Source: Sphaerodactylus townsendi
Taxonomy: Eukaryota
Reading direction: 5' to 3'
NCBI RefSeq assembly: GCF_021028975.2
Contig: NC_059426.1
Span: forward strand, 66,712,001-66,776,000
Length of the DNA stretch: 64,000 nt
The notes beneath the pieces are model-generated. The model had not been told where the DNA came from. It did not search any database and saw nothing but the letters and a program-made list of their open reading frames with translations. Below are positions 9,480-63,111 of the stretch, in pieces (positions within the stretch are counted from its first letter, which is position 1; the number at the start of each line of letters is the position of its first letter). The translations under genes were made by a program, and so were the position numbers.

Positions 9480-9800
9480 GGAGCAGCAGTGGCGTAGAAG
9501 GTTAAGAGATCGTGTATCTAATCTGGAGGAACCGGGTTTGATTCCCAGCTCTGCCGCCTGAGCTGTGGAGGCTTATCTGGGGAATTCAGATTAGCCTGTG
9601 CACTCCCACACATGCCAGCTGGGTGACCTTGAGACCTACCAGTCCACAGCTTCTTGGAGACCTCTCTCACACCCCACCCACCTCACACAGGGTGTCTGAG
9701 CTGTGAGGGGGAAGGAGACAAGAGGAGATTGGAAGCTCCCTTGAGTCTCCTGCAAGAGAGAAAAGGGGGATATAAATCCAAACTCTTCTTCTTCTTCTTC
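9480..9800 (+). mobile_element. Squam3-type SINE, full length
   Basis: GGAGCAGCAGTGGCGTAG head, B-box GGTTTGATTCCC, (CTT)n tail. Confidence 0.85.
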
Positions 9801-10396
9801 TAAAGTGCAGCTGAAAGGAAGGGCTGGAATGGGATTTGTGGATGGGGAGATGGGCAGCACAAGGCATTTTGGTTCCTGTGTCCAAATGGTAGTAAAAGCA
9901 TCTTAGTGCTCAAGAATGGGCAGCTGACTGTAAATGTGCTGTTTTTAATGGTGTCCTGATGGCTGTTGCTTGAAATGAACTATCTTATCCCGTCTAGTAG
10001 TGCTGCTGCTCTGGTTCATTATCATCATCACCTTTATTGGCATACAAAAATTAAATACAAAACTTTCAAATCAGCTTAACTAACACTGTTGTTCTCTTAA
10101 CCTTATAGCTAAGGCAAGCAGTTTAGCTGCGAGGGTGATCTGGCTGTGACATCCGTCACTCCACCGATCACCAGCATTAATTCAACTCTTGCTGGGGTGG
10201 GGGTGGTGAGAATAGGACAGAAATGTGAGGAAGCTTCATATGCTTTCCAGTTAAGTAATCTATCAAGGACATTCCTTGGCCACCTCGGAACTCCGTTTAC
10301 ATCTAGCCGGTCTCTAGTCAGGTACCACGTTGCATGGGCTGGTTGTGGGGAAAGTGGCATTAGAAGGAGGTGACCAGAAGGAAGATTGGAAAGGAA

Positions 10397-10668
10397 TTGT
10401 CGAAGGCTTTCACGGCCGGACTCAACTGGTTGTGGTGGGTTTTCCAGGCCATGTGGCCGTGGTCTGGTGGATCTTGTTCCTAACGTTTTGCCTGTATCTG
10501 TGGCTGGCATCGTCAGAGGTGTATCACAGAGGGAAGTCTGGACATAGTGTGTAACAGACTTCCCTCTGTGATACACCTCTGAAGATGCCAGCCACAGATG
10601 CATGTAAAACATTAGGAACAAGATCCACCAGACCACGGCCACACAGCCTGGAAAGCCCACCACAACCA
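10397..10668. mobile_element. Palindromic Penelope-like element remnant (inverted pLTR pair) in CRYBA2 intron 1
   Basis: About 120-bp inverted arms around a short spacer; flanking direct repeat ATTGGAAAGGAA/ACTGGAAAGGAA (10385-10396 and 10669-10680); decayed hammerhead motifs. Confidence 0.8.
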
Positions 10669-11658: not shown

Positions 11659-11961
11659 TGGAGCAGCAGTGGTGTAGTGGTTAAGAGCAGGTGCATTCTA
11701 ATCTGGAGGAACCAGGTTTGATTCCCTGCTCTGCCACTTGAACTGTGGAGGTTTATCTGGGGAATTCAGCTTAGCCTGTGCACTCCCACACACGCCAGCT
11801 GGGTGACCTTGGGCTAGTGATAGCTTTTCCGAGCTCCCTCAGCCCCACCCACCTCACAGGGTGTTTGTTGTGAGGGGGGAAAGGGCAAGGAGATTGTCAG
11901 CCCCTTTGAGTCTCCTACAGGAGAGAAAGGGGGGATATAAATCCAAACTCTTCTTCTTCTT
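11659..11961 (+). mobile_element. Squam3-type SINE, full length
   Basis: Same head, body and (CTT)n tail as the 9480 copy. Confidence 0.85.
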
Positions 11962-12013
11962 CCCACTCTTCAAGCTCCCTTGAGCATTGTAGGACATAGT
12001 AACATGTTTAAGA

Positions 12014-12149: not shown

Positions 12150-12587
12150 GTTTAAGACTATGTTTTTCATGTCTGATAAAATAGATCATGATAATTCCAA
12201 TCAGTCTGATTTAGTTGGGATTATACTAGCTAGAGATTGTTTAGTTACGGCTGAAGGTTGAAAGGCAACAGATGCATTTGATAGAAAAGTTCAGCAGTGC
12301 ACCTTCATAGGAGATAAACAATGTATATTAATTACAAGCAGTAATGCTAACTCATTAAAGCTTTAGTGGTTTGATCAGGGAGAAGCAATTTTTAATAATC
12401 TAATGTTAGCTGGGGACTGAAACTTTTTTTTGTAATGAAAAAGAAATAAAAAGTAATAAAAAAGAAAGCATTCAAGGTGACACTTTCTTCACGGTCACCC
12501 ATCTCTTTAGTCTCAAAAGGCACCTGTATTGAGGCCATGGGGAAATGCAAATGCATTAGAGAGAGTCACTGTTAGAGGCTGTGGTTG

Positions 12588-12718
12588 CCATGGTGGCGAA
12601 CCTATGGCACTCCAGATGTTCATGGACTACAATTCCCATCAGAATTGGCCATGCTGGCAGGGGCTGATGGGAATTGTAGTTCATGAACATCTGGAGTGCC
12701 ATAGGTTCGCCACCAATG
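12588..12718. mobile_element. Palindromic hAT-type MITE with ACTACAATTCCCA arms
   Basis: Hairpin TGGTGGCGAACCTATGGCACTCCAGATGTTC / GAACATCTGGAGTGCCATAGGTTCGCCACCA. Confidence 0.8.
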
Positions 12719-13633
12719 GGTTAGAGTGTTAGACTCCAGAGTTCAAATCCCTGCCTAGTCAGAAACATTACTGTGGATGACTTTGAGCAAATCATTATTT
12801 CTCAGTCTAACCTACCTTATAGGGTTGTTTTGGATGGGGTAAATTATCAATAATATTTTGAATAGAACAAATTAGTCACTCGCATTTTAACCAATTAATT
12901 GACTTAGTAACTCAAGTGATTCAATCGATGGAGTTTTACATGTTTCCAGGAGCATGTGGTCTGCTTACCTTTTGTGTGAGTATGAGACTTTTCACTTAAA
13001 TATTTGAATAATATCTTTATAAACTTGGAGGTCTCTGTATCTTTTTAATAAGCAGTCAGTTTAAAAAGGAGTTCCGGAGAAGAGAGAATTTTACTACACA
13101 TGGCTTTTCTGATCAGAGAACTGAAGTAAAGGGAAATGGCACCTAGTGCGACTGCCCTTTCTATTTCGCTCTTAAAGATACACATACATCTGGAATGCAC
13201 AGTAAGTTCTCTCTTCTTTGAGCAATATATGCAAAGCTTTCTTGAGAAGAAACTTACTGGTGGATTTAGCTAATCCTCCGTCTGCCATAAAACTGTCTGT
13301 TTGACTGGAGGCCAATCCTTTTCTCTGGGCCTAAAGCAGGTGGAGGGGGAGATGCGCACCATCATGAGCTCCTTTGAGGGAGATGAAGTATTTAAATATC
13401 AGTTAAAAGAGGGGAAAGATGATGATCTGGAGAATCCATACAAAAACATTTCTGTGTTAGGGATGAGATAGTTCGTGGGAAGCCCTGCGCGGGACCTTGT
13501 CTGTCTTCCTGCAGCCATGCACAGGATTGTTGCGAGAGGTGCAGAATTTGATTTTCATTTCAGAATTTGCAGCTTCAAGAATTCATTGTCTTCTCCCTCT
13601 TATTCCCCTGCCCACTGCTCAATTCTCCTGCAG

Positions 13634-18663: not shown

Positions 18664-20209
18664 GTAAGTGAAGGCTTCTGGGCTGCAGCATGGTTGGGAA
18701 GGCTTTGGTCCTTGTGGTGGGACCTTTCCATGCCTCACTCTTGCCTGTCTAAGAGTACCCTTCAGCACAACTAGCTGAACTCAGATAAAACAGGAATGGC
18801 CCAAGTTGCTGTTATTATTTTAAATAGCGTCACTAACATATACAGTAAAAGCAAAAAAACTTGCCCAAAGGAGCGGAGGGAGTTGAACAGCAGATGCACA
18901 GGTGGGGTGAGCTTTGAAGGAAGAGGAAATTGCTCAACAAATAAGTGTCCAGAAAGGGAGTCTCCAGCCAAAAGGAAGCAAGTGAAAAAAGGGCAACAGA
19001 CCTTCAAGGGGCTGAGGTATTTTGGGCTGGAAGAGTGAAAATAAAATCATGGCTGACTGGGGGAAGTGGCAGAAAGATAGAGATGGGCAAACTGGTGGAG
19101 TCCCTTAGAAGCAAGGACAAGACTTGCTTCATTATGCATTTATCACTCTCTGCTGCTCAATAATGTCTTGGAAACTGATGCAGCTCCTCCTGCTCAGGTT
19201 TCTTGGAACTGAAGTGGGAGGGGGAGCAGCTAGTGAACAAGCACCCTTCCCTTCCCCAAGGCAGCTACAGGTTATAGCAGCAGTTAGACTCCTCCATAAT
19301 ACTGAGCCTGCTGGGTGATCCCCCTCCCCGCATCCCCAACAGAGCACCAAATGCACTCTTCTTCAAACACTTTGGGACAGAGTCAGACAATCCTTTTAAA
19401 AGAATTACAGTGCAGTCCTAAGGACACTTTCCTGGGGGCAAGCCTCACTGAATATACCTAAGTAGGTTTCTGAGTAAACCTGTTCAGGATTGCTCTGCTG
19501 GAGTGGTATGAGAGAGAGACATTGTTTCCTGTGGTTTGTACACACATTTCTTTCGTACTAGCACTGCTTCTGGTCAAACAGGCTTTGTAGATTTTTTTAA
19601 ACAATGCAAAGAAAAAAACCCTGTGCCAAACTATTTTAATAGATGCCAAAATAGGTTAAGTGTATTCACCAGAGTGATCTTTCCTCCAAATTATAGGCTC
19701 AGTCTGTTTCTTTCTGGGGTGCTCCTGCCCTTCACTCTTGGTGTCAAGGACTCTAGATTGTGCAGGTTGCTCTGCCACGGTCTAATGGGCAGACAGTCTG
19801 AGTTTGTGGGCTTTGGAGCCAATCCAGCACTGTTATTCTGTGACTCTGGCATGCATCCTGCACACCACACCCACAAGCTAATTGCCCTGACATTAAGGGA
19901 AGTGCTGCTGTTTTTAAATTTGTGGGACACTGTTGTGAAAACTTTACTGTATTCAAAGAGTTATATCCAGTTGCACAGAGACATCATGCAAAGACTGCAG
20001 TTGTGGTCTCTGTGTTTACGCATCTGCACCACAGTCATTTATTTAACAATGCATGTGTGCAATGATATTGGATTGAATTAAGCAGTTAGTATTCCTGATT
20101 GCACAATGATCATAGCATGTGCAGTGTGATTTCCTGTGCAGTGATCCTTCCATGAAATAAACAATGCAAAGTTGGATACATGCCTTATTTCCCCCCCTCT
20201 CTTTTCATA

Positions 20210-20360
20210 GACCCCTTACGCACATGCAAAATAATGCACATTCAATCCACTTTCACAACTGTTTGAAAGTGGATTTTGGTATTCCGCACAGTAAAATCCA
20301 GCATCAAAGTGCATTGAAAATGGATTGAAAGTGCATTATTCTACTTGTGTGGAAAGGGCC
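20210..20360. mobile_element. Palindromic PIF/Harbinger-like MITE (CCCTTCCGCACATG family); copies at 37041-37140, 38888-39025 and 41490-41582
   Basis: Inverted arms CGCACATGCA.AATAATGCAC / GTGCATTATT.TGCATGTGCG; superfamily inferred from the termini. Confidence 0.7.
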
Positions 20361-25297: not shown

Positions 25298-25846
25298 GTA
25301 AAAACTTGTCTAGACTTTCCCTCACCCATATTTGCCTCAATACCTTCCTTACACTCTTCCAAAAGGGATTGTGAGAGTACAATACCCCTGCATTGGAAAG
25401 TGCTCCCATCTCCAGTCCTGGACTATCCACCCTTGTCTGTGAGTAAAAGAAGAAAGCTGTCCTCAGCCAATCGTTGATATGCGATGGACATCAAAGACAT
25501 GTTAATGGAATGCTTGTGTGATCTCAGCAGTCAAAATGGACAAGGACCCAGACCACAATTGTTGGCATTCACAGTACGCAAGATCCTGCCAACATTTATC
25601 ACATTAACTGGGACAAAAATGATCCATGTGACCAAATGATTGTTGGGAGGGGCCGTGGCTCAGTGGTAGAGCATCTACCTGGCCTAGGTCCAAACTCCAG
25701 CATCGCCAGTTGAAGGATCCAGCCATAGGTGATGTGAAAGACTTCTGCCTGAGACCCTGGAGAACAGCTGCCAATCTGAGTGTAGACAGTACTGACTTTA
25801 ATGGACCAACAGTCTTGTTCATAAGTAGACCAGATGGTGCACTAGG

Positions 25847-25991
25847 CATGCGTGTCAAACTCGTGGCCCTCCAGATGTTCATAAACTACAATTCCCATCA
25901 GTCCCTCCCAACATGAGCATTGGCTATACTGGCAAGGGCTGATGGGAACTGTAGTTCATGAACACCTGGAGGGCCAAGAGTTTGACACCTG
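25847..25991. mobile_element. Palindromic hAT-type MITE with ACTACAATTCCCA arm
   Basis: GTGTCAAACTC.TGGCCCTCCAG / CTGGAGGGCCA.GAGTTTGACAC inverted ends. Confidence 0.8.
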
Positions 25992-28916
25992 TGGAGAAGT
26001 TAGCAAATGATCTGATCCATTATCAATGCATCTATAAAGGGAAACTCCTTATTTCCTGAAAGGCTTCTGTGCCTTCATGAGCTTCTTTGCAGGCAGAGCT
26101 TTGTAGCCAAAGACAAGGTTGCCCTGTTCCATTTAAATGCTGACATTTAGCAATTAAAACTACAGCCCAGGAGCCCTGCTTGGAAAACAACTGGCAGCCC
26201 CACTAGCCTGTGGTGCCTGGGCAAGTGCCTTGTGCTGCAAAATGCTGCTCCCTTGCCCTTTCCCTCTGCCCTGCCCCCAAAAGGAAGTGCCAGCTTCAGG
26301 CCTCTCCCCTTGCACAAACATTCCTGCACTCACAAGACGTCCCAGCTGTTCACCCTCTCTCCTTTCCGAAGTAGGCAGCGTATCCATGGTTTTCCCTGCC
26401 AGGGCCACGTCAGCTTCTGCCTGGAGCAAGCCTGCAGGTAAGTGGAAACAAAGCTGGGGATAAAAGCCTATGAAATGCGCACCTGCTCCAGAATCTAATG
26501 CAGGAGAAAAGGAAATAGTGGGGGAGAGTTTTGAGCAGCTGGTATTTCTTGTTTTCTGCATATGTGTGGGGAGGAAGAGTCCAAATGGTGCTATGTGGAT
26601 CATGAGATTGCTGTTTAATTCTGGTAAGAATGGGATCAGCCTAGGGCAAAACCATGTTTGAGATCACAGAATATAAAGGTCTTTGTTTTTTCCCTTGTCT
26701 AAACCAGGGCACCACAGAGCAGCTGATCCACCTTCACCTGCCCCATCCGTGCAGTCTGCTCATTCTGTCCCTTTCTCACCCCCCCTCCCCCAGCCTGTCT
26801 CTGCCATTCCTGATTTACAAGCCCTTGCATCTCCAGGCCTGATAGTGTTGGTGAATGAGGAAAGTATTATTTACCTGGAATGAGTAGATGATTAGGGCCA
26901 AAGGGAGGTTGATGCACATATTTCAGATGGTGTAGCAAAACACAATAACAACAACAACAACAACACTGCACGAGTCCACTGGCACCTGAAAGACTAACAA
27001 AATGTATTCCAAAATACACATGTAATCTGACAAAACAATCTCCGACACATGAAGGTTTGTGCTGGAATAAATTTTGCTAATTTTAAAGGTGCCACACTGG
27101 CCTTCTGGGTTCATTTTCTTGTATCGAAGTCACTTTCCTCTGGCACTTCCACCGGCGCAAGGAAAGAGGTGAGACGGAACAAGGGCTGGAGGGCTGAGTT
27201 TGAGAGACTCTGGTTTGAGATCCTGATTACTAAATTTCACTTCCAGGGCACTATGTTTGCTCATTGGACACTTAATACCCCAATTTTCTCCCCAATAGGG
27301 ACCCAAAGCTAATGAAAACATTGTCCTTCCTTCCCTCCCCCTCCCTATCTTGATACTTGCCTCTCAAGGCTGTAGTGAAGATAAAAGGGGAAGGTATAAA
27401 TGATGTAACCCACCCATGTTGACTTTCATTACTAAAAGAAGTTGAAGTACTGGAGGGCAGATGTCTGCCTAGAAACAGCATAATCTCACCAGTCCGCTGA
27501 AGAACTCAGGCTGACTATTCCTTTATATATTCATGCTCTGCTTTTCTCCCCAATGCACAATTCTCAAGGAAGCTTACAACATCATTCTCGCCTCTTCTGT
27601 TTTATCCTCACAACAACAACCCTGTAAGGTACATTAAACTAAGAGAGAGTGACCTTGCTCTCCCAGAGTCTGCCCAACACTGAAATGTATCCCATACATG
27701 TTGAGCCACTAACTTTACTTGTTCCAGTTTGTTTTTCTGTTCTTCCAGTCCAAAATTATAACATTTAAGAGTGGGGCTTACTTTTGGGTTTGGCATCCTG
27801 AGAACGTCAGGGTTTGCATTTTTCAAGGTCCACATTTGAGTTCTCGTAGCTGCGATATGTGGGTGGGTCATGTCTCCCAAAGGTGTCAAAACCAGCTGGA
27901 GTGTTCCCTGCTCTTCTCCAAAAAAACCACAATGCAAAATGAATATATGCAAATATAATTGGTTGGAATAATTTACTCATGGCGCGGAATTCAACTTTCA
28001 TTGGTACAGAGCCTGAAACCAAATTGAGCCATCTGTTCTTGCTGGGAGGTGCTAAATGAGTGCTCCTGGCTCTCCTTCCTCCTCCTAGTCCCTACCCAAC
28101 TTGTGCTACAGCTGATAAATGGCTGTCCCAAGCCATAGCATGCCTCTTTCATGACAGTCACAAAAGCATTATGGCCAAGTGATCCTTTATCCCTTCTGAT
28201 ATTACCCAGCAGTATTTCTGCCTGAATCGGGCACCTGTGACCCAGGCTGGCTTTACATGCTGATGAAACACAGACTGCATGTCCATCAAGCCAAACTATG
28301 ATCTGCACGCAGGGGTTGCAAGGACTAACTCAAATCTCCTTTGCCTAATCAGATGCTGCTTTATTTCCTGACTCTCCAGAGAGCCTTGGGGATCAAAGGA
28401 CCCTTTCCAACACCAGCACCACATGGCCTGCCTGTGCTGGGCTTGTTTTCAGTTGCCTGAGGCTTATTAGGAGGACTCAGGCAGCTAAAGCAAGTCTGGG
28501 GCAGGAAAGGAGAACCAGCAGAATCCTCTATTCATGAAGGAGCAAGCAGGGCAGGCAGAAGAAGATGGACTGGATCTAGGAGATGGGGAGACACATACAG
28601 AAGGTATCAGACCAGGTCGTGGCATGTCCAGAGGATGGAATATCCAAATGGGAACATGACTTCATGCTGCTGGGCAGAGCTTCCTTTCTTCTCAACAGAA
28701 ATTGATGGGGAGATTCCACTTCCCTCAAATTGCTGAGGATCTAGTGTTTGAACCAGAAATTGCTGCAAGGCACTGCTGAGTAGCTACCTCCAGGAAGACC
28801 CTGGGTGTGCCATCCTGCCAGAGGTGCATTGGCAGGAAGTGGCCTCGCTAAAGTATCTCAAATAGATAGGCGGATATAAATCTTAAACAGCAATACAAGC
28901 TTCCACATTCTACAAG

Positions 28917-33558: not shown

Positions 33559-34368
33559 GGATCAACCACTGGGTGATGTGGGTTTTCCGCACTGTGTGGC
33601 CAGGTCTCTGCTCCTGACCCGCAACACCCAGTTGATTCCAACCGTGAAAGGCTTCGACAATACAACGACCAACCATATTTGCTTGGAGGACGTCCTGTCT
33701 CTGGCACCTCCAGAGCAAAGCACCTGAGGCGTCCAGAGGCCCTCTTTCTGCAGTCCTGTTTGTCACCATCCTGGTGGCCAGGCACTTCCAGTCCGCTGCG
33801 GAATTAGCGGCACCTCCGTAGGGGCGCTTAGTCTTCCCGGGTTTTCGGGGGCCACCTGCAATTTTTGGCTGTTCGTATCCCGTTCTGCCCCAGCCCCGAA
33901 TCACCCGAGAAGCCACGAACGACGAACCATATGTGTATGTGTATATGCACACTTTTTTTCAGTGACGGCGAAGGGAAGGAATACAGGACATGGGAGGTTT
34001 ATGAAATTGGATAAATTCAGACAGAAAAACTCCAAAAATGGCTGTTGGCCCTGGTGGTTAAAATGGAACCTCCATGATCAGAAGACCTATATCCCCGTAG
34101 GTCAGATGACAGGGGACAAACGCTGGGGGAGGGGTGAGATAAACAAGCGTGTTGTGTCACCTTAAATTATTACAATGTGAGCTTTCGGGGACTTCTAGGT
34201 TCACCCTCCTTCAGCAGTTGGGTCTGTGTGTGTGTGTGGGGGGGGGGGGGGGATAAGCGAACAGCAAAGTCATGGATGAGTGTATTGTGGAAGGCTTTCA
34301 CGGCCGGCCTCAACTGGTTGTTGTGGGTTTTCCAGGCTGTGTGTGGCCGTGGTCTGGTGGATCTTGTT

Positions 34369-34409
34369 CCTAACGTTTCGCCGGCATCTGTGGCTGGCAT
34401 CTTCAGAGG
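34369..34409 (-). ncRNA. Minimal type-I hammerhead ribozyme motif (intact core)
   Basis: Minus strand CCU-CUGAAGA-U-GCCAGC(cacagau)GCCGGC-GAAA-CGUU-AGG: stem I CCU/AGG, stem II, palindromic ACGU stem III, GUU cleavage triplet; transcription and activity not shown. Confidence 0.7.
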
Positions 34410-34439
34410 TATATCACAGACACTTCTCTCTGTGATAGA

Positions 34440-34480
34440 CCTCTGAAGATGCCAGCCACAGATGCAGGGGAAACGTTAGG
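34440..34480 (+). ncRNA. Minimal hammerhead ribozyme motif (core intact, stem II closing pair G-G mismatch)
   Basis: CCT-CTGAAGA-T-GCCAGCCACAGATGCAGGG-GAAA-CGTT-AGG. Confidence 0.55.
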
Positions 34481-35280
34481 AACAAGATCCACCAGACCAC
34501 GGCCACACACAGTCCGGAAAACCCACCATGTGTCAAGAACTTGTGCAAAGTGCTAACCTGATACAGAAAAGGCCCATGGCTCGATCACTAGTCGTGCTAA
34601 GGTAGTTCTATCCCTCTCTAGCTGGGGCGTTCCTGCTTTGCCCCGCTTGCCGCTTCTCCGAAAGCCTGGAGCTGGACCACCTGGGAACGGGCTGCTGCTG
34701 CTGGCGTCGACGGCGCCCTCGGGGCCTGATCCTGCGCTCGGCTTCCCCTTGCCCAAACCTGGGCCAGCTTTCCGGCGGTGGTGGCGGCGGCCTCTGGAGC
34801 TGGGCGGGCTGACCGTCGAGCTGGGCCAGGGCAGGGCAGGGCGCATCTCTTTCAGGTTAAAGGCCCATTAGGGGCTTCGGCCCCGGCGGGTGGGTCGTTT
34901 CCTTGTTGGCTCAGAGGCGCTGGAGCAGAAGCGAGGCGGGCGGGCGGGCGCTGCCTGTTTGCAAAGAGTTAAGGAGGCGGAAAATGCGGCGGGCGGTCGC
35001 GGCTGGCGCTCTCCATAGAAACGATGATCTTTAACGGGGGAAACTTTATTAAAGTCCGATGGGGCGATAAGCGCGAGCGCCGCGCCTTTAATTAAAGCGC
35101 AGAGGAAATTGCCGGCGCCCGGGCCCTGCGCCCCTCGCCCGTTGCCTGGAGACTGCCGCGCCCCCCTTCCCCGTCCTGCCTCCGCTGGTGGGAATCGGAA
35201 TACAGAGTCACCACCAGCATCTTCCCCAGGCGAAGAGGCGATAATAGCCGCCGCGGGCGCCGGGTGCGCGCAGAGCTGCC

Positions 35281-35329
35281 ATGAGACGCGGCTTGGCCCG
35301 GACCCTGCTGCTCAACATGTACCTGCCAG
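35281..35329 (+). CDS. FEV: FEV/Pet-1 coding exon 1
   Basis: GCC-ATG Kozak; MRRGLARTLLLNMYLP resembles the human N-terminus (..LLINMYLP); donor CAG|GTAGGA, phase 1. Confidence 0.9.
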
Positions 35330-35944: not shown

Positions 35945-38900
35945 GTAAGCGAGGGGCGCTCTCCAGCCGTCGCCGAGAAGCTTTTTTTGTGGAGGGGGGG
36001 TGGGTGACGAGACTTCCAGGTGGGCTGCTTAAAAGGGGCCATCAATTTCCAGGCTTTTTCCTGGGGGGGGGGGGATCTACCAGGCAACTTGGGGCAGTGT
36101 GAGGCATCAGTGCCCGGTCAGCCGAAGTCTGACATTTGAATCCGCCTCGCCCAGCGGATTCTCTTCTGCCATCTGGGATCTGGGACTGGCGCAGCCAGAA
36201 GGAATCCGCCATCCGCCCCATGCAGGCTGCAGTTTTAAAATTGAAGGGGGGGGGGGGGTTGCTTCGTTTTGTTGTTGGGGACCACATTGTTTTTGCAGGG
36301 AAAAACCTGTGCCTAGGCCGGTCTCGTTTGCCAAGAACGAAACGCCCCAATAAAGCGGTGGTGAAAAATGCCCTCCCCCCGCGATCCCGATCCCCTACTG
36401 GCTTCTCCAGGGTAGGACTCGATCCTTAGCGCTATTACTTTGCGCAAAAAAAAAGTGGTCTCGCAGTATTCGACTTTTTTTTTTTTTTAGTGCTGGGAAA
36501 ATGTGGATTGAAGAGTTTAATTATTTATATCCTGCATTTCCTGTAAGGCTATCACGAGTCCGGCTTATTAATAAAAATCAAAAATAACGCTTTTATTGGG
36601 GAAGGGGGTAGGGTACCGTTGGAACTTCCCGCTTAGCAGTTAGGTCGCTTGGAAGGGCGCGGGCTTCCCAGACGCCCTCAAGATTAGACGTCCTCTTCAA
36701 AACACTTTCCTGCATTGAATGGACTGGACTCGGATGCGGAGTCGGCCGGTTTCAGATCGCGCCGCTCATGTGGCTGCACAGACTGGGAAACTTGCTGGTC
36801 CAGGACCGGCTTCTCCTGCGCTCCTCTGAGCCTCCCGCCGTCCCACCGCGCTGGCTAGAAAAAAAGGGCGGTCGCTTTCCTTGCTGCGCTTTGGTTTGGC
36901 CCCGATCCGCTCCCGCTCACCGCAGTCGCCCTTCCTCCCCTGCCCCGGTGAGGCTGGCAAGCGAGGTCTGCGCCAAGCAAATGAGGCGGGACTGTCTTTG
37001 AGGATATAATCTTTGCCGTTCAGGTTACTGAGGTCAGCCTGACCCCTTCCGCACATGCGGAATAATGCACTTTCAATCCACTTTCGCACTTGTTTGCAAG
37101 TGGATTGAAAGTGCATTATTCTGCTTGTGCGGAAGGGACCTGGTCCAAGCGGGGTGCAACCCACAAGGCAAGTGGTTCCCTCCACGGTGGCCCGGAGCTG
37201 AACACGTTCGGTCCTGTTAATCTAAAGGCCAGACGAGGCAAGGGGGATGCGTTTCTTTCGTTTATTTCAGTGTTTGTACCTGGCTGGCCCAGGCTGGCCG
37301 ACTCTCTTCCGAGGTCAGAAGCTCTGCGGAGTCTGCCCTGCCTGGCTCCTCTGGGGATGGGAGACCAGCAAGAAAGACGGAGGTCGCGATGCAGAGGACG
37401 GGCGACCGACCTCTGCCCGTCCTTCCCCAGGAAAACCGCGAAGGGCCGCTTCAAGTCGGCTGCGACTGGATGGCACTTAGCGGGCACGCGCGCACGCCCC
37501 CCACGCCGTCGTTCCTCGTAATGCTGGGTCTCCGGGAGGCGAACCAGTTTCACAGACCTGTAAAATAAATGTTTTAAAAGTATCTGTGAAACCAGCAATT
37601 CAACTGGAGCCCTGTTGCGGTCCCAGTCCCCTTTGCCCGGCCCCTCTTTCCTGTGCCCAGAGGGTGCGCCCACGGCCAGCCTCGCGTGGGTCGGTCCCTC
37701 CTGCGCTCGCAGAAAAAGCTAGAAGACGAAAGAGCTTCTTCGGTGGGGGAGCCAACTTACTGCGTGCGCTGAAATGTCATTCCTCTGTTTTCCCAATTTC
37801 AACACGAATAAATAAACCTGGGAATCCTTCATTAAAAACTATCCAGGAGGACTTCACGAGAAAGACTGCACCCCCCCGTGATTTTTTTAAAAAGATCCTG
37901 CGATCGCTGCTTCATGAGCCCTTCGGGGATGGCGGGGTATAAATATAAGAAATAAATAAACTGTTATTTTCAGATTTAGCTGCAAATAAAAACCCGCATT
38001 TCTAAAGGTCGTTTCTGCCGTTTTTATATAGTTCTCTCCCTCACCCCCCCACCCCCCCTTAACCTCAGGAAAAGGTAACCAACAACAGCGCCTTCACCAG
38101 TTGCGACAAGATCTCTGGGTCTGAGAGTCGCCAGCCATCAAATTAATGCTCCTGGTTTACTTGCTACAGTTGAGCTACTTTGCGAAGGGTCCTGCTTGCT
38201 GGAAACCTCCAACAAGTGAATCTACCCATACACACCTCCCTGCCCCTCCTGAGTGACTGTCTGGCAGCACTCCCGGTTCACCCAGGAGCCCTGATGCGAT
38301 CCCTGTCCTCAGCCTTAAAACCCTCGGTGGAGCCGCTGATCTTAAACGGCGCGCGGGCGGCGGCGGGGGGGGGGTGTCTCTGCAGGGAAGCCTCGGTCGT
38401 TTCAGGGGTGCGGACAGATTTAGTGCCATCAGTGGATTGAGGAGCTGACCAATCGGGATGAGCAGGTCAGGTAATGCGGGGGGGGGAGCATCTGCCCCCC
38501 CCCCCCCAACTAGAGCACTTGTCTCCCTCACCGACAACAGTCTTGATGGAGCTCCCCTCGACTGTAGTTCGAGTCCGCCGCGCACCCGGTACAGGATCCA
38601 GTTTGAAATTTCCTTTTTGGATAGGAGCGGAACTCCAATTCAAATCAAACAAACAGGAGCCGATGCGGTGAAGAACTCGCCCAGGGGAGGTTCTGCCGCA
38701 GCCCACTCCTGGTTGTGCTGGTTTTCTGTTTGGGCGAGGGGAAGATTCGCACACACGCGACCCCCAGCCCCACCCCCACTACCAGCAGCCCTAAGGGGGA
38801 TAGCCAGTTCTCTATTCCTCTTCCCCATCTCAGTCCTCTGTCATAGGCAGTTATCTGCTGGAAGTTACTACACCCGTTTATCAGATGGCTCATTCCGCAC

Positions 38901-39643: not shown

Positions 39644-39911
39644 TGGTTGTGGTGGGTTTTCCGGCCTGTGTGGCCGTGGTCTGGTGGATCTTGTTCCTAA
39701 CGTTTCGCCCCTGCATCTGTGGCTGGCATCTTCAGAGGTGTATCACAGAGGGAAGTGTGTTACATACTGTGTCCAGACTTCTCTCTGTGATACACCTCTG
39801 AAGATGCCAGCCACAGATGCAGGCGAGAACAAGATCCACCAGACCACGGCCACACAGCCCAGGAAACCCACCACAACCAGTTGAATCCGGCCATGAAAGC
39901 CTTCGACAATA
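39644..39911. mobile_element. Palindromic Penelope-like element in FEV intron 2
   Basis: Inverted arms; minus-strand hammerhead core intact (39696-39738), plus-strand copy lacks about 8 nt spanning GAAA/stem III/cleavage site. Confidence 0.85.
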
Positions 39912-40844
39912 AAATACAAAAAAGCCCGAAATCTGACTTTGTCAGGCAACCCTCCCCTTCTGCTTAGCAGGACAGCAGCAGAATTGGGACCGCCCAGTGG
40001 CCCGGGGTCCTGCGCCCTCCTTGAGATTCATGGGAGGTGAATGACCCGATCCAGCGCCCCTCCGAAGCACTTTGGACGGCTCCGATGGAAGGGAAAGGCA
40101 CTTCCGGCAACTGATCTGCAGGCTGTTGCATTTTGTGGCTTCCCCCTCCTCCCGCCCCCGGAAAGTTTTTTTTTAATTTCCCCCTAAAGGCAAAAAACGA
40201 CCAATTTGGGACGACTTAAAATAACACAAAACAGCCCGCCAGCTCTCGAGATCTCCACAACTATTAACGGGAGCGGGGCGGGGGGAGGGGCGCGAAGAGG
40301 GAATTGGAGGCGTTTGAGGTTTTGATCTTCAGGCTTCTTCAGTACAAGACGCGAGAGTGTCGGCCTTAGAAGGAGCTGTAACATCTTGGGCCGAACTATC
40401 CCCCCCCCCCCCCCCCCACCGCCGACACTTAAAAAAAAATCTAACAAGACCAAGAATGCCGGAGTGGCCGCAAATGGGCGCGTGGTTTTGCCTGCACTCG
40501 CTGCACGAAGACAGCCGGTTTTACGCTCCCGGACGCGATAAAATGGCTCAGGTGGACACCTAGCTTTTCTTCCGCAGGTCAAGGTGTCCCCGTGAGCATT
40601 CTTATGAGATGGGGATAAAACACTGACCGCACTAATGCTGGAGTTGGAGAAGCCCCCCCCCCCATCACAATAATCTCCAGTTTGTGTGTGTATGTGTGTG
40701 TTTGTGTGTGTGTGTGAGTGAGTGTTGCTGTCAGGCTACCACAATAAAATACATTTAACCCAATAAACGTAACTACAATAACAATAAAACATGTTAAATT
40801 TTTAAAAAACTGTAAAACCCAGATGTTAGCTTCTCTTTCTAGAC

Positions 40845-41087
40845 CAGGGGTAAGGAACCTGCGGCTCTCCAGATGTTCAGGGGACACACAATTCCATAAA
40901 GCCCTACCAGCATGGCCAGTGTAGTTCCTGAACGTCTGGAGAAGCCACGGAGTTCTGTTCTAAACCAGGGGTAAGGGAACCCATGGCTCTCCAGATGTTC
41001 AGGGAACTACAATTCTATCAAATTCTTACTCAGCATGGCCAATTGTAGTTCCTGAACATCTGGAGAGCCGCAGGTTCCCTACCCCTG
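40845..41087. mobile_element. Two tandem hAT MITEs (40845-40957 and 40966-41087)
   Basis: Three copies of the 8-bp target: TTCTAGAC / TTCTAAAC / TTCTAGAC. Confidence 0.85.
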
Positions 41088-42558
41088 TTCTAGACCCACA
41101 AGAGGCCATGATCAAACTTTATGGTTCCTGGCACAATGGAAAGGCCAGTCAGAACAGCTCCATCTACCAGGCCTTGCGGAACTGATTTAGATCCCGCAGG
41201 GCCCTGATCTCTAGGGGGAGCTTGTTCCACCAGGTTGGGGCCAGGACTGAAAAAGCCCTGGCCCTCTGGAGGCCAGCCCGGGGACTTTTGGGCCAGGGAT
41301 TCCCAAAAGGTTCACCTCCGAGACAAGACTGCTCAAGGCCTTAAAGGTTAAAACCAGAACCTTGAAAATGGCCCAGCTGTTTTAAGAAGGTTGCCCATCC
41401 AAACATTCACCAGGGCTGACTCTACTTAGCTTCATAGATCTGGCCAGACCAGGTCAGCCTGGGGCTATCCAGGTCAGGGCTAGCCTGTGAGTGGATTTTG
41501 CTATTCTGCACAGTAAAATCCAGCTGCAAAGTGGATTGAAAGTGGATTGAAAGTGCATTGTTCTGCATGTGCAGAAGGGGCCTAGGAGAGGAAAGAAAGG
41601 CCACTTCGGGCCTTGATTGGATTTGAGCAGGAGGCACAATCTACCCTGTGTTTTGAGCTCCAGATGCAGATATTATATGACTTTTGACTAGATTTGGTTT
41701 GACCCCTGCAGGTCAGTGGCAGCCATCTATGTCCCATCTAGAGAGCTGGTGGAGATGGAAGAGAGCTGGTGGAGATGGAGGAAGGGGGCTCAGCCGGATA
41801 GGAAGCCCCGTGTGATCAAGAGGGAGCCCCCTCACCGCCACTGAGGGAACGTTGACCGATGGGGGTTCTTTCGTGGCTCCTAAATGCAAGCCTTCCTCGT
41901 TAACAGTCTCGGCCCAGATAATAGCTCAATCAGGCAGCAGCGGGAGGGGAAATTTTAAAGCCGCTCTTTATTATCAGTCACTCCCATCGATTTCCTGGCC
42001 GTCTGGGGGGCATTTTAAATTCTCCCATCTTGTTTGCCTTATGACGCCTGGAAGATTATAGCTTCTCTGTACGTCTTTGTGAGTGTTTGCCCTTGGAGTT
42101 TCTCCTGCCTCCCTTCTGTTGAAGATAACAGGAAATGCACGCAGAGAGCAAGCCAGAGAGAGCACTTAATATTCATCCCCACAGTAGGAGGTTCCGCCTT
42201 CAGAAAACACTGGAACCAAAGACCTGAGCCTTTTGAGGAGCCCCCCCCCAAGCCAAGCAAGCTTCTCTGTGCAAATAACACCCATCCATCCCTACCATAC
42301 CTCTGTGTACAACACTTGGGCTCCTCATTACTTCTTGAAGCATTCAGCCCTGGGACTGATGGGGGAGGGTTGTGGGGTCACTGCCAAAGAGAGGGTTGAC
42401 TTGTCAACTGTGTCAGTGCTGATCCTGCCAATGCGCAGGTGCTTCCTTGAAGCTGAAGGTTTCAGCCTCCTGGCAAGTATGAGGATCTGAAAGAGTAGTC
42501 TTGACCACAACAAGGCACAGAGCTCCACTTCAATTCACTGGTTCCAGAGGGTCTAAAC

Positions 42559-44769: not shown

Positions 44770-45272
44770 GCAGTGGACAGATTCAGTTGTGGCAGTTTCT
44801 GCTGGAGCTGCTTTCAGACCGTGCAAACCTCAACTGCATTGCATGGGAGGGCACCAACGGTGAGTTCAAACTGCTGGATCCCGATGAGGTGGCACGGCGC
44901 TGGGGCGAGCGCAAGAGCAAGCCCAACATGAACTATGATAAGTTGAGTCGGGCGCTACGCTACTACTATGACAAGAACATCATGACCAAGGTGCACGGCA
45001 AGCGCTACGCCTACAAGTTCGACTTCCAGGGCCTAGCACAGGTCTGCCAACCAGCCACGCCTGACCACACCCTCTACAAATTCCAGGCACCCTTGCCTTT
45101 CTCTGGCATCTCCAAACTCAACATCATGGCCTCCGGTGTGACCCCTACCAGTTTCTCCTACTGGCCAGGTTCTACTCCGGCCCTGTACCCCAGCCATGGC
45201 CTACAGCCGTCAACACCCTTCAGTGCCATGGCAACCTCCCATATCAACAACATGAACAGTCACTACCACTAG
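44770..45272 (+). CDS. FEV: FEV/Pet-1 coding exon 3: ETS domain and C-terminus
   Basis: Acceptor TTTTCAG|; [14 protein letters not shown]...[42 protein letters not shown]...HYH*; three exons total 627 nt = 208 aa + stop. Confidence 0.97.
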
Positions 45273-51139: not shown

Positions 51140-51428
51140 GCAGTGGTGTAGGCGGTTAAGAGCTCGTGTATCTAATCTGGAGGAACCGGGTTTGATTCCC
51201 AGCTCTGCCACCTGAGCTGTGGAGGCTTATCTGGGGAATTCAGATTAGCCTGTACACTCCCACTTCTCAGAGCTCTCTCAGCCCCACTTACCTCACAGGG
51301 TGTTTGTTGTGAGGGGGGGAAGGGCAAGGAGATTGTAAGCCCCTTTGAGTCTCCTGCAGGAGAGAAAGGGGGGATATAAATCCAAACTCCTCCTCCTCCT
51401 CCTCCGCTGCTGCTGCTGCTGCTGCTGT
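51140..51428 (+). mobile_element. Squam3-type SINE with (CCT)n(GCT)n tail
   Basis: Same head and body with an internal deletion. Confidence 0.8.
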
Positions 51429-55916: not shown

Positions 55917-56433
55917 AGCAGTAGTGGCATAGTAGTTAAGAGCCGGCAGTGGCATAGCACCAATGGGGCGGGTGTGTGCGTGAGATGCTCTGGGCAGAGC
56001 CACATTGGAGGCATAACCGAGACATTCTGGGGTGCTCCAGGGGTGTTCCAGGGCAAGGCGGGGCTGGGCGATGCTGCAACAAAGGTGTAGAGTGCGTGTG
56101 TGCCCTGGGCACAATTTCCCCTTGCTCCACCTCTAAGAGCAGGTGCACTCTAATCTGGAGAACCGGGTTGATTCCCTGCTCTGCCATTTGAGGTGTGGAG
56201 GCTTATCTGGGAAACTAGATTAGCCTGTGCACTCCAACACATGCCAGCTGGGTGATCTTGGGCTAGTCACAGCTCTTCAGAGCTCTCTCAGCCCCATCCA
56301 CCTCACAGGGTGTTTGTTGTGGGGGTGGGGGAAGGGAAAGGAGATTGTAAATTCCTTTGAGTCTCCTTACAGGAGAGAAGGGGCAGGTTATAAATCCAAA
56401 CTCCTCCTCCTCCTCCTCTTCCTCTTCCTCTTC
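55917..56433 (+). mobile_element. Squam3-type SINE interrupted by a hAT-type MITE (55947-56135)
   Basis: SINE head resumes after the insert; 8-bp TSD AGAGCCGG/AGAGCAGG. Confidence 0.8.
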
Positions 56434-59091: not shown

Positions 59092-60556
59092 CATTTTCAG
59101 GTTAAAGGATAATAAAGGGATTTTTGTGTGTGTGCAGAACTCACAGTGGCAACTAGGCTTGTGCCAGCAGCCACACAGCCTGCCCTAGTCAGGAGTACAT
59201 TTTCCTGCCCTCCGGAGGGAGAGTTCTCTGGGGAAGCCCGGGCTCTCCCTAGGCAACCATCTGCATCAAAAGCAGGAGCAGCTGCCTCATCGGTGGTTGC
59301 CATGGAGAGAAGGCAGCAGAGGTTCAAAAATATTGCTCTGTTTTCTTCTGAATGGATCAATTGGTTGTTCAGGTGGCTTCCTTATACAAAAAGTTGGGAT
59401 CCCGTCCCTGGCCACGGATGATGAATCTTGTGATTTCAAGGCTGGTGCCAGCAACTGTGCACCCAGCAGCAGCAAGCAACACAGCCAGTGCAGACTTTTT
59501 TTAAAAAAATGCTTCTTCCACTGCAGGTGAAAACAGGTCAAGCAAGTTTCAGTTCCCCAGAACAGCTCATCCCATGGGGGGGTGGGGGGCAGGGGGCAGG
59601 GGAGAGAGATGAATATTTCCCCCTTCTCCAAAAATGATCGTTATGGGTTAGCCATTTCTCCCAGAAGTGGGAGATGTCGACTGCACATTGAAGAAACACC
59701 GTCGGAGGAGAGAGGCGAGGAGTTTACTTATTCTGTTAAGAACTCCGGAGCATGGAGACTCCTCCACACAATTCCTGTTGGAGCCTGCAGAGGGGCACCA
59801 AGTGTTGTTTCCAAAGGGACTGCCCAGCCAGGATCATGAACCTCTGATCAAATGGGCTCTCAAGATCCAAAAGAGCTTTTCAGCACAGACTCCAAGAGCC
59901 ATTTCAAAAACCCCAACTTACTACATTCATACTGGATTCAACTGCAAGAGAGCATCCGGGAGTTAATGTCCTCTGGGATGGGCCCTGTCGTTAGCTAGAG
60001 TAAGGAGGCTGGAGGAGGCATGATCCAGTACTTGGGCTAGCCAGACTTCCTCTGGACTGCATATTTACCACTCCAAAGAAAACCATTTTGGAGAGACTCG
60101 TCTTCTCAGGGCATGGTAAGTGTCTTGCCTTGGCACCGCATCCACAATGGCCACACCACAAGATTGCCGCTGCCACTGTCCTTGTCACACATTGCACATG
60201 GTCTCCATGGTGGCCTGCCTGCTTCCCTGCTGTGCCAACACCAGTTTTTATGCCTGCATTTCATTCCAATTATGCCATGACAGAGGGCAATTGGCATAAT
60301 GGAGCTAGAGCCGTTATGATAAATGCGTCCTGTCACCTGGGGGACAGGGACACCGGGCCTTTTGCTCATCATCCACGAGGAATCTGCGATGCACCATGTG
60401 AGAACCGATATGAAATATGTCCTGGCTGTTGCTCTTCCACTGCATGGAGGAGAGATTCGTCGTGGCTGTTGCTATTCTGTGATCATAATGAATTGCCAGC
60501 ACCTGGGTTATACAGTGTTCCAAAAGCTTGGGGTGCAGGTGGCTTTCCCTCTAGCG

Positions 60557-60713
60557 CAGGGGTCTCTAACCTGCGGCTCTCCAGATGTTCAGGGACTACA
60601 ATTCCCATCAGCCTCTGCCACCATGAGCCATTTCAAAATGCCACCATGGTGGCAGGGGCTGATGGGAATTGTAGTCCATGAACATCTGGAGAGCCGCAGG
60701 TTGCAGACCCCTG
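60557..60713. mobile_element. Palindromic hAT MITE with ACTACAATTCCCA arms
   Basis: CAGGGGTCT...AGACCCCTG TIRs; TSD CTCTAGCG/CTCTAACA. Confidence 0.85.
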
Positions 60714-61375
60714 CTCTAACAGGTTGAAGTATTGATACACAAAGGATTGCCTGGCCAAGCTTATTAAAGTCTCCATTGTGCAGAATCCAGCCAGGAGGGG
60801 GACCCAGAGCTGCACTTCTCCTTCCCTAAAATGCTGACCATCTTCCCGCAAGTGGCTTATGCCTGCAGCCAAAGATAATCCACCCACAAACAGCATCACT
60901 TTCAATGTTGTTTTAACTGGGGACCCCAGATTCTCCCTTTAAGGTGGACTTAAAAGGAGAATCTAGTTTAAACACCATTGAAAGTGATGCTGTTTGGGGG
61001 TGGATTCCAGCATCACAGTGGCCGCCCATGGGGCGCCCCCCCCTGTAAAACTCATTTTGCACTGGGCTCCACTTTCCCTAGCTATGCCTGTGCCCGGAGG
61101 GGAGGGCAGAAGGGACTGCTCGCTGCTGGCTGGGAGCCCAGCCGGTGGGGGGGGGGGGAACAGGCAGGGCAGGGCAGGGGAGTCTGCTGTCCCTGGCCTC
61201 GGAGAGCTGCTTTTATAAGCACTGAGGCCGGGGGTGGGGCTTGGGGAGGTGTGGCCTGATGCCAGGGGTGGGTGGGGGTGTGGTCCCGTCCCCCAAACCT
61301 CCTCATAAAAATCTATACCTATATCACTGATCTTCAGTCTCCTATTTTGTGGAGAAAATTTATTCTGAATCTAAT

Positions 61376-62934: not shown

Positions 62935-63111
62935 TTGGTTGTTGTATATCTTCTGGGCTATGTGGCTGCATCTGTGGCTGACATGGAAATACATCTTACC
63001 ATGACATGCCTCTGAAGATATCATCCATTGATGCAACCATAGATGCAGGCAAAACATTAGGAGCAACCCTGAAAACCCACCACAACCAGTTGATGAAAGC
63101 TTTTGTGAATA
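62935..63111. mobile_element. Degenerate Penelope-like palindromic remnant
   Basis: CCTCTGAAGA...GATGCAGGCAAAACATTAGG...GAAAACCCACCACAACCAGTTG shared with the other copies. Confidence 0.65.

Follow-up and report, generated by a model that had tools for sequence, protein, structure and literature searches.

Palindromic Penelope-like element copies in Sphaerodactylus townsendi as 5'-truncated insertions likely made by twin priming

Introduction

The closest described relative of the element analysed here is PAc, the Poseidon element of Anolis carolinensis (Frangieh et al. 2024, PMC11167929), in which, as in the present copies, the ORF begins within a hammerhead ribozyme and the tail ends at +118 (positions are numbered from the A of the ORF ATG as +1, at 34400 in the focal copy). 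The PAc protein, which has been modelled as a dimer, cuts and extends both DNA strands in vitro; its two start sites are internal and delimit the tail, one of them being at +111-118. In that paper neither a strand difference in the start site nor RNA reads ending at the hammerhead cut were seen. In vitro the reaction requires the segment up to +172, and the hammerhead, which cuts only with the protein, is dispensable for insertion. Inverted insertions are described in the available sections without being tied to two-strand priming, and without TSD size, co-stopping of the arms or an edge at the transcription start site. Compared by eye with the printed template (PMC11167929), the first 118 bases of the two families studied here, family A (that of the focal copy) and its sister family B, are collinear with PAc and gapless, with ~99/118 positions shared in family B and ~89/118 in family A. 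PAc differs in its host genome and in its cleavage site, which in family A is GUU and not GUC.

The inverted shape with a tail is itself already published: Pen2a_Av (PMC3846280) and the general scheme for EN+ Penelope-like elements (PLEs) (PMC8557442) show, as here, a head-to-head inverted 5'-truncated copy with a one-sided tail of 30-40 bp and a TSD of ~9-13 bp. Both papers favour self-priming or resolution by the endonuclease (EN). In the present genome the ORF-less short form dominates. The origin of PLE inverted repeats and tails is stated to be open (PMC8557442, PMC11167929).

The minimal hammerheads known from PLEs (Cervera and de la Pena 2014, PMC4209133) share with the present ones a loopless palindromic stem III, an extra base between A9 and G10.1 and the G10.1-C11.1 pair. 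By way of difference, stem I has only 3 bp here and most genomic arms are mutated or devoid of the motif. Opposite-strand hammerhead pairs of Schistosoma, 100-700 bp apart, have been ascribed to truncated PLEs (PMC4209133). Non-LTR retrozymes (bioRxiv 10.64898/2026.07.22.740005) are likewise short, ORF-less, PLE-derived and hammerhead-bearing, but are described as head-to-tail tandem units, in contrast to the head-to-head arms with variable centres found here. Retrozyme membership was rejected, the arms being head-to-head; rare short tandems do occur elsewhere in the genome.

In LINE-1 twin priming both nicks prime cDNA, which gives an inversion joined by microhomology within one TSD. LINE-1 differs from the present case in that its second primer acts at variable internal sites and copies another segment, whereas the PLE sites are fixed, 34 bases apart, and the same segment is copied. 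A literature search, thin in subscription journals, turned up no earlier proposal of twin priming in PLEs. We describe here a palindromic copy of S. townsendi that is a 5'-truncated Poseidon-type PLE insertion, probably made by twin priming.

Results

Anatomy of the focal palindrome

The window is the whole stretch of 64,000 nucleotides that was analysed (contig NC_059426.1, 66,712,001 to 66,776,000). The focal element (34281-34528) is made of two head-to-head arms over ~250 bp. The inverted parts (34323-34420 and 34429-34526) are 95% complementary and, as RNA, are predicted to fold into a single hairpin of -201.7 kcal/mol (z -26), which bears out an earlier, sequence-only reading of this DNA as a palindrome of two inverted arms. 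The equality of the arms assumed in that reading did not hold, a 34-bp tail being present on one arm only, here and in all four other copies of the window (5/5).

The tailed arm (34281..34420, minus strand) comprises PLE bases -20 to +118, oriented outward, and matches the family A mapping reference at 92.9%. Its tail (34281..34314, minus strand, +85 to +118) is the segment between the two outer-end positions, a definition taken from PMC11167929. The tail-less arm (34422..34528, plus strand) comprises bases -27 to +78 and meets the tailed arm at a head-to-head junction at 34421, where the truncation at -20 on one side and -27 on the other is unique to this copy. A private 2-bp insertion is common to both arms. 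No recognisable TSD was seen around the focal copy, and its right arm is ~6 bp short of the usual end.

The minus-strand arm carries a hammerhead motif at 34369..34409 that has the minimal type I core, with stems I and II and a palindromic 15.2-16.2. It is composed of stem I (CCU/AGG), CUGAAGA, an extra U, stem II, GAAA, the palindromic ACGU and GUU, with a predicted cut between 34372 and 34371. In the second hammerhead (34440..34480, plus strand) the G10.1-C11.1 pair is broken by a G at 34469, and the ribozyme is predicted to be impaired. Rfam hammerhead models gave no match at E<=1 across the window, nor at E<=10 on the arm, and only spurious matches to microRNA families were returned for the palindromes; the assignment, as a minimal hammerhead of the dimer type already proposed in the earlier reading, therefore relies on the motif together with the relationship of the arms to the homologous anole element. 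The motif has each of the features named for minimal PLE hammerheads. The tolerant positions N7 and H17 differ among PAc, family B and family A (by eye). No compensatory stem changes were seen within families, and the motif is also protein-coding. It had further been claimed that every arm reads the hammerhead core; CUGANGA..GAAA was present in only 3/8 arms of the four main copies, and one of these three, the plus arm of the focal copy, has lost G10.1-C11.1. The proposal that a read-through hairpin would mask its own ribozyme is in line with the predicted folds, in which the probability of stem II is ~0 on both strands.

Other copies in the window and the neighbouring ETS gene

All the further copies noticed earlier (near 10397, 39644 and 62935, and a relic at ~33570-33665) were recovered. 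Copy 1 (10396..10668) has its tailed arm on the left and its tail-less arm on the right, with neither hammerhead core intact; the direct repeat said to flank it is real, as an exact repeat of 10 bp and not the 12 bp given before. Copy 3 (39644..39911) lies in intron 2 of an ETS gene, with the tail-less arm on the left and, on the right, a tailed arm whose hammerhead is partly deleted; it carries a recurrent -47/-30 junction (see below). The relic (33568..33664) is a very short palindromic copy, +53..+86 inverted followed by +71..+118, and lacks a hammerhead. A decayed old copy is placed at ~62936..63093, followed by part of the tail.

The first coding exon of this gene (35281..35329, plus strand) starts with the ATG at 35281, 753 bp beyond the end of the focal element, and its Ets domain is found at 44772-45110 (E 3e-36). 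The distance of about 750 bp given earlier is thus confirmed, and the name FEV is kept here as a presumption from the N-terminus. The focal element adjoins the edge of a CpG island, has no element promoter, and its intact hammerhead faces away from the gene. The idea that the FEV island shields the CpGs of the element was considered and rejected, with 6/9 CpGs kept versus 149/233 in other arms, no difference. Since there are five copies per 64 kb, the closeness to FEV is unremarkable; no evidence ties the focal element to this gene, and no effect on it is shown.

Other features were also seen in the window. A mir-1788 precursor (28430-28506) scored 79.9 bits, above the Rfam gathering score. 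Other short inverted-repeat families, likely DNA-transposon MITEs, lie in three groups, at 60552-60718, 12581-12723, 25846-25998 and 40838-41092, at 37036-37143, 20197-20360 and 41490-41595, and at 2141-2320. A SINE-like family (9486-9800, 11666-11965, 51140-51404 and 56165-56418) is inserted inside PLE arms at several genomic loci (L082, L089 and L105) and therefore was active after family A.

Parent element, sister families and abundance

Walking upstream of the arms led to decayed reverse transcriptase (RT) and GIY-YIG sequence that ends in the arm. One locus (L278:2299-4755) retains an intact family B ORF of 819 aa (RVT_1, E 1e-12) that starts at an ATG within the hammerhead, and L274/L283 has the same layout for family A. 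The GIY-YIG domain of the parent ORF was recognised by eye from its motifs, Pfam giving a weak T5orf172 match only, and a PDB search with the PLE protein returned distant RTs only. Compared with the Anolis protein P0001, its best database match, the family B ORF shows 85% identity, and family A copies show about 71-80%; the N-terminus of P0001 equals the translated PAc template as printed in PMC11167929 except for one residue (by eye). The arms are therefore assigned to a Poseidon-type PLE, both because copies with RT and GIY-YIG end in them and because the ORF matches P0001. By this identity the parent can be placed as an EN+ PLE of the Penelope/Poseidon clade, as the Penelope origin suggested earlier had implied. 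Each arm corresponds to the end of the pLTR plus the first 28 or 39 ORF codons, the pLTR overlapping the start of the ORF. Named protein matches to the L278 ORF next after Anolis come from beetles (56-57%), which hints at a possible horizontal transfer.

In the 1.81-Gb genome, exact matches numbered 8278 for a tail 23-mer, 4447 for a family A 27-mer and 14,153 for a family B 30-mer. Scaled by the unselected arms that match the probe exactly (4/55 in A and 12/43 in B), the total is very roughly 60,000 arms in family A and 50,000 in family B, and the mini-palindromes likely number tens of thousands. A read-through pattern from pLTR into ORF had 115 genome matches versus the 8278 of the tail; the ORF-less short form dominates, the ratio being rough as the patterns differ.

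A similarity search for the 5' end of family A returned only copies of one passenger insertion, and the end was found with the read-through pattern instead. This passenger (for example L209:2940-6700) belongs to family A, is tail-less, measures 2.45 kb and has a TSD of 11 bp; it lies inside another repeat, which has Helitron-like ends (by eye only) and with which it was multiplied; its copies (L208-L217 and L218-L247) have an upstream flank common to 30/30 loci of one set, and some are 97-98% identical. Short head-to-tail arrays of pLTR-ORF junctions with periods of ~160-205 bp (C4:158576344-158576741, C8:108903507-108903950 and C7:17910205-17910400) are candidates for retrozyme-like tandems or source loci.

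Inverted pairs across the genome sample

A position-ordered sample was drawn along the initial 23 Mb of a single contig (C1), where regions were selected by an exact 27-30-mer; it comprised the first 90 family A regions, which cover most of 100 listed places, and 70 family B regions (~first 93 listed places). It yielded 101 inverted pairs and 57 anchors for which no partner was found; two pairs that proved spurious on inspection (L122 and L126) were dropped, leaving 99. The outer ends of the arms are bimodal, at ~+84 and ~+118, positions that agree with the tail and RT start site already published, and one of each is present in 98/99 pairs, with two tails in 1/99 and two tail-less arms in 0/99, in agreement with the inverted pLTR arrangement expected from the earlier reading. 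In a tail-anchored sample (n=28) the partner was tail-less in 18 cases, tailed in 2 and missing in 8. A TSD with a mode of 12-13 bp encloses 78/99 pairs (a set that includes the spurious L126), versus 2.1% of 1500 shuffled flank pairs. Long and full-length copies (L183 and L279) follow the same inverted-plus-tail plan. Among single arms that lie within a TSD of their own, some end at +84 and others at +118; six of those ending at +84 have an abutting repeat of 10-14 bp in an uncontrolled count (L061, L294, L297, L305, L323 and L349).

The centres, where the arms are joined, are variable. Among pairs with adjoining arms the junction coordinates are distinct in 47/48 of family A and 34/37 of family B, and total palindrome length ranges from 96 to 1048 bp. 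Clean junctions (n=64) show a microhomology overlap in 29 cases, a blunt join in 4 and filler in 31, the filler being often copied from nearby sequence. Polymerase-theta-type joining is known to leave filler. The tail-less arm reaches more than 15 bp further in than its partner in 21/48 family A and 9/37 family B pairs and the tailed arm in 5 and 7, counts inflated in favour of the tail-less arm since short tail-less arms are harder to detect; a longer tail-less arm is thus usual in family A (21:5, and 18:5 at the recurrent junction) and not in family B (9:7).

These data bear on the idea that the palindromes are a non-autonomous family copied whole, with functional back-to-back ribozymes. The typical size near 250 bp, the enclosure of the whole palindrome within TSDs and the existence of one junction with 96 exact genome matches would fit such a unit. 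However, variable size had been named beforehand as its refutation, and the spread found, together with the 81/85 distinct junctions, does not support it. Both hammerheads are intact in only 8/99 pairs (4/56 in A and 4/43 in B), and no shared flanks were seen among the pairs of the position-ordered sample. The recurrent junction itself, present in copies 1 and 3 of the window, occurs in both polarities: among 30 of the 96 loci, 22 have the -47 arm without a tail and 5 have it with one, while 3 could not be assigned clearly. Six of these copies have common flanks and represent one insertion multiplied inside another repeat, which collapses the ratio to 18:5, and haplotypes vary among the copies. 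Because it is found in both polarities and on several haplotypes, and its clonal copies rode inside another repeat, this junction recurs via microhomology and not by descent. The unit model is thus largely refuted and we hold it to be very improbable. In L354, L355, L360, L363, L371 and L378 a short palindromic copy was multiplied as the passenger of a repeat that contains internal tandem units and differs from the one carrying the 2.45-kb insertion.

Proposed priming at both ends of a staggered cut

The preferred scheme starts from what is observed: the family identity, two fixed outer ends that pair strictly, the TSD, centres that vary and show microhomology or filler, and the frequent co-stopping of the two arms (see below). 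In twin priming, the element protein would cut both DNA strands ~12-13 bases apart, and each freed DNA end would prime reverse transcription on the element RNA, one at +84 and the other at +118. The two short cDNAs would then be joined head to head by cellular end-joining repair. Synthesis of cDNA on both 3' ends of a staggered cut would leave a head-to-head palindrome with the priming sites outward and enclosed in one TSD, as is observed. The products would be dead ends, since they are without the promoter and without +119..+172, which the anole protein needs in vitro.

Alternatively, a U-turn could be envisaged, in which a cDNA begun at +118 turns back at its end and serves as its own template, or, as has been suggested for the PLEs of rotifers, an antisense RNA acts as its own primer. 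Endonuclease cutting or annealing would then set the second end at +84, and the centres would be trimmed asymmetrically later. Self-priming has been proposed in PMC3846280, and the tail has been ascribed to EN resolution in PMC8557442. Such a process would explain the strict asymmetry of the tail, both arms stopping at the same base, the blunt perfect palindromes (3/32 at +30) and the shared rare alleles. It predicts nested arms, whereas the tail-less arm is the longer by more than 50 bp in 14 family A and 6 family B pairs versus 2 and 4 for the opposite, a difference that detection bias inflates. A simple fold-back is thus disfavoured because the tail-less arm often reaches further in than the tailed one, an argument that later asymmetric deletion of the palindrome centre, plus the detection bias, could weaken. 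Further points against the U-turn are the disagreement of the arms at lineage markers and the priming of PAc on RNA at both sites in vitro described in PMC11167929. Moreover, tail-less single arms, and the 2.45-kb tail-less copy, carry TSDs of their own, so that +84 would be primed directly, with no tailed arm to copy. Taken together, we regard the U-turn as unlikely.

One RNA template or two

If twin priming made the palindromes, both primings would usually take place on one RNA molecule. Co-stopping was examined in 50 loci from each of two lists of truncated family B arms (142 at +30 and 74 at +35): the partner arm ends no more than 1 base away from the stop of the anchor arm in 11/32 pairs at +30 and 7/33 at +35, versus 0/65 in the cross-control (P 2e-6). 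This points to one template end or, equally, to a U-turn on the first cDNA. Rare alleles are common to both arms above chance (permutation P<0.001), and in the sample A/B chimeric palindromes, sought as proof of two RNAs, were not seen, the arms being always of the same family. In one locus (L399, ~1390-1590) both arms stop at +30 and are separated by a 53-bp filler of antisense ORF (~+105..+160), which resembles a template jump at an RNA end.

On the other hand, family A arms disagree at lineage markers, at +42 in 12/42 and at +79 in 12/50 pairs, where the random expectation is 19 and 23. Mutation alone has a generous ceiling of ~7%, and because the disagreement exceeds it the scheme of one template copy is not universal. 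Such differences could arise from a transcript with two pLTRs, from two RNAs or from gene conversion at a later stage. In the second of these, twin priming would take place on two RNAs: a protein dimer would hold two transcripts, which might pair through the palindromic stem of the hammerhead, and the layout of the complex would assign +84 to one and +118 to the other. The marker differences in about 1/4 of family A pairs, linked at 2-3 sites in several of them (L062, L094, L106, L113 and L149), would be expected in this case, and a dimeric hammerhead would cut both transcripts at +30. However, co-stopping is also seen at +35, a position at which two RNAs should have no end in common, and the modelled hammerhead dimer (-12.5 kcal/mol) is less stable than the best dimer fold (-18.6). 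Priming on two RNAs seems to us quite unlikely.

Inner ends and the putative start site

The inner ends of the arms are not evenly distributed. In family B 40/118 fall at -17..-12 and 0 at -40..-18, downstream of a TATA-like box at -41 and around an Inr-like A at -13; in family A 39/161 fall at -49..-39 and 5 at -84..-51, with the TATA-like box at -76 and the Inr-like A at -48. The peak thus shifts with the TATA-like box, staying 28 bases downstream of it in both families, and for this reason we infer that most cDNAs extended to the 5' end of an RNA whose transcription had begun within the pLTR; this would account for the typical size. A TATA/Inr promoter lying a short way upstream of the hammerhead would accordingly give rise to most template RNAs, and hence to palindromes of 200-300 bp. 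An alternative is that end joining prefers the small palindromes that overlap both peaks, GATC in family B and -47..-33 in family A. This objection is eased, not removed, by the single arms of family B, 9/26 of which start at -15..-12. The promoter of Drosophila Penelope is described as TATA-less, and TATA plus Inr has been noted in a rotifer pLTR. The outward transcripts that the sequence-only reading had suggested as dimer partners find no basis in the focal copy, whose arms begin at -20 and -27, short of the TATA-like box at -76, and lack an element promoter.

Some template RNAs may have been cut by the hammerhead. Truncation falls at the predicted cut (+30) in 142 family B arms and at +35 in 74, a 1.9-fold excess over a single control, with false positives of 4/50 and 5/50 and some loci counted twice. 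Stem I microhomology could explain 7/43 unique +30 loci, and co-stopping at +30 is not significantly higher than at +35 (P 0.28). As a trace of hammerhead cutting this excess is suggestive only.

Discussion

The inverted pairs may also be read as a fossil record, in which one RNA was primed twice from both cut ends, at two fixed sites 34 bases apart, both cDNAs ran to the same 5' end of that RNA, and the stops map the start site and show hammerhead cutting in the germ line; we offer this reading tentatively, as something possible but short of probable. If true, the inverted repeats and the one-sided tail of PLEs would come from one mechanism, and there would be in vivo evidence for cleavage by minimal hammerheads. 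In genome annotation these palindromes are best labelled as truncated insertions of a PLE. Families A and B are close relatives of the only full-length PLE that works in vitro, and the rules seen in the genome can therefore be translated to a test at the bench.
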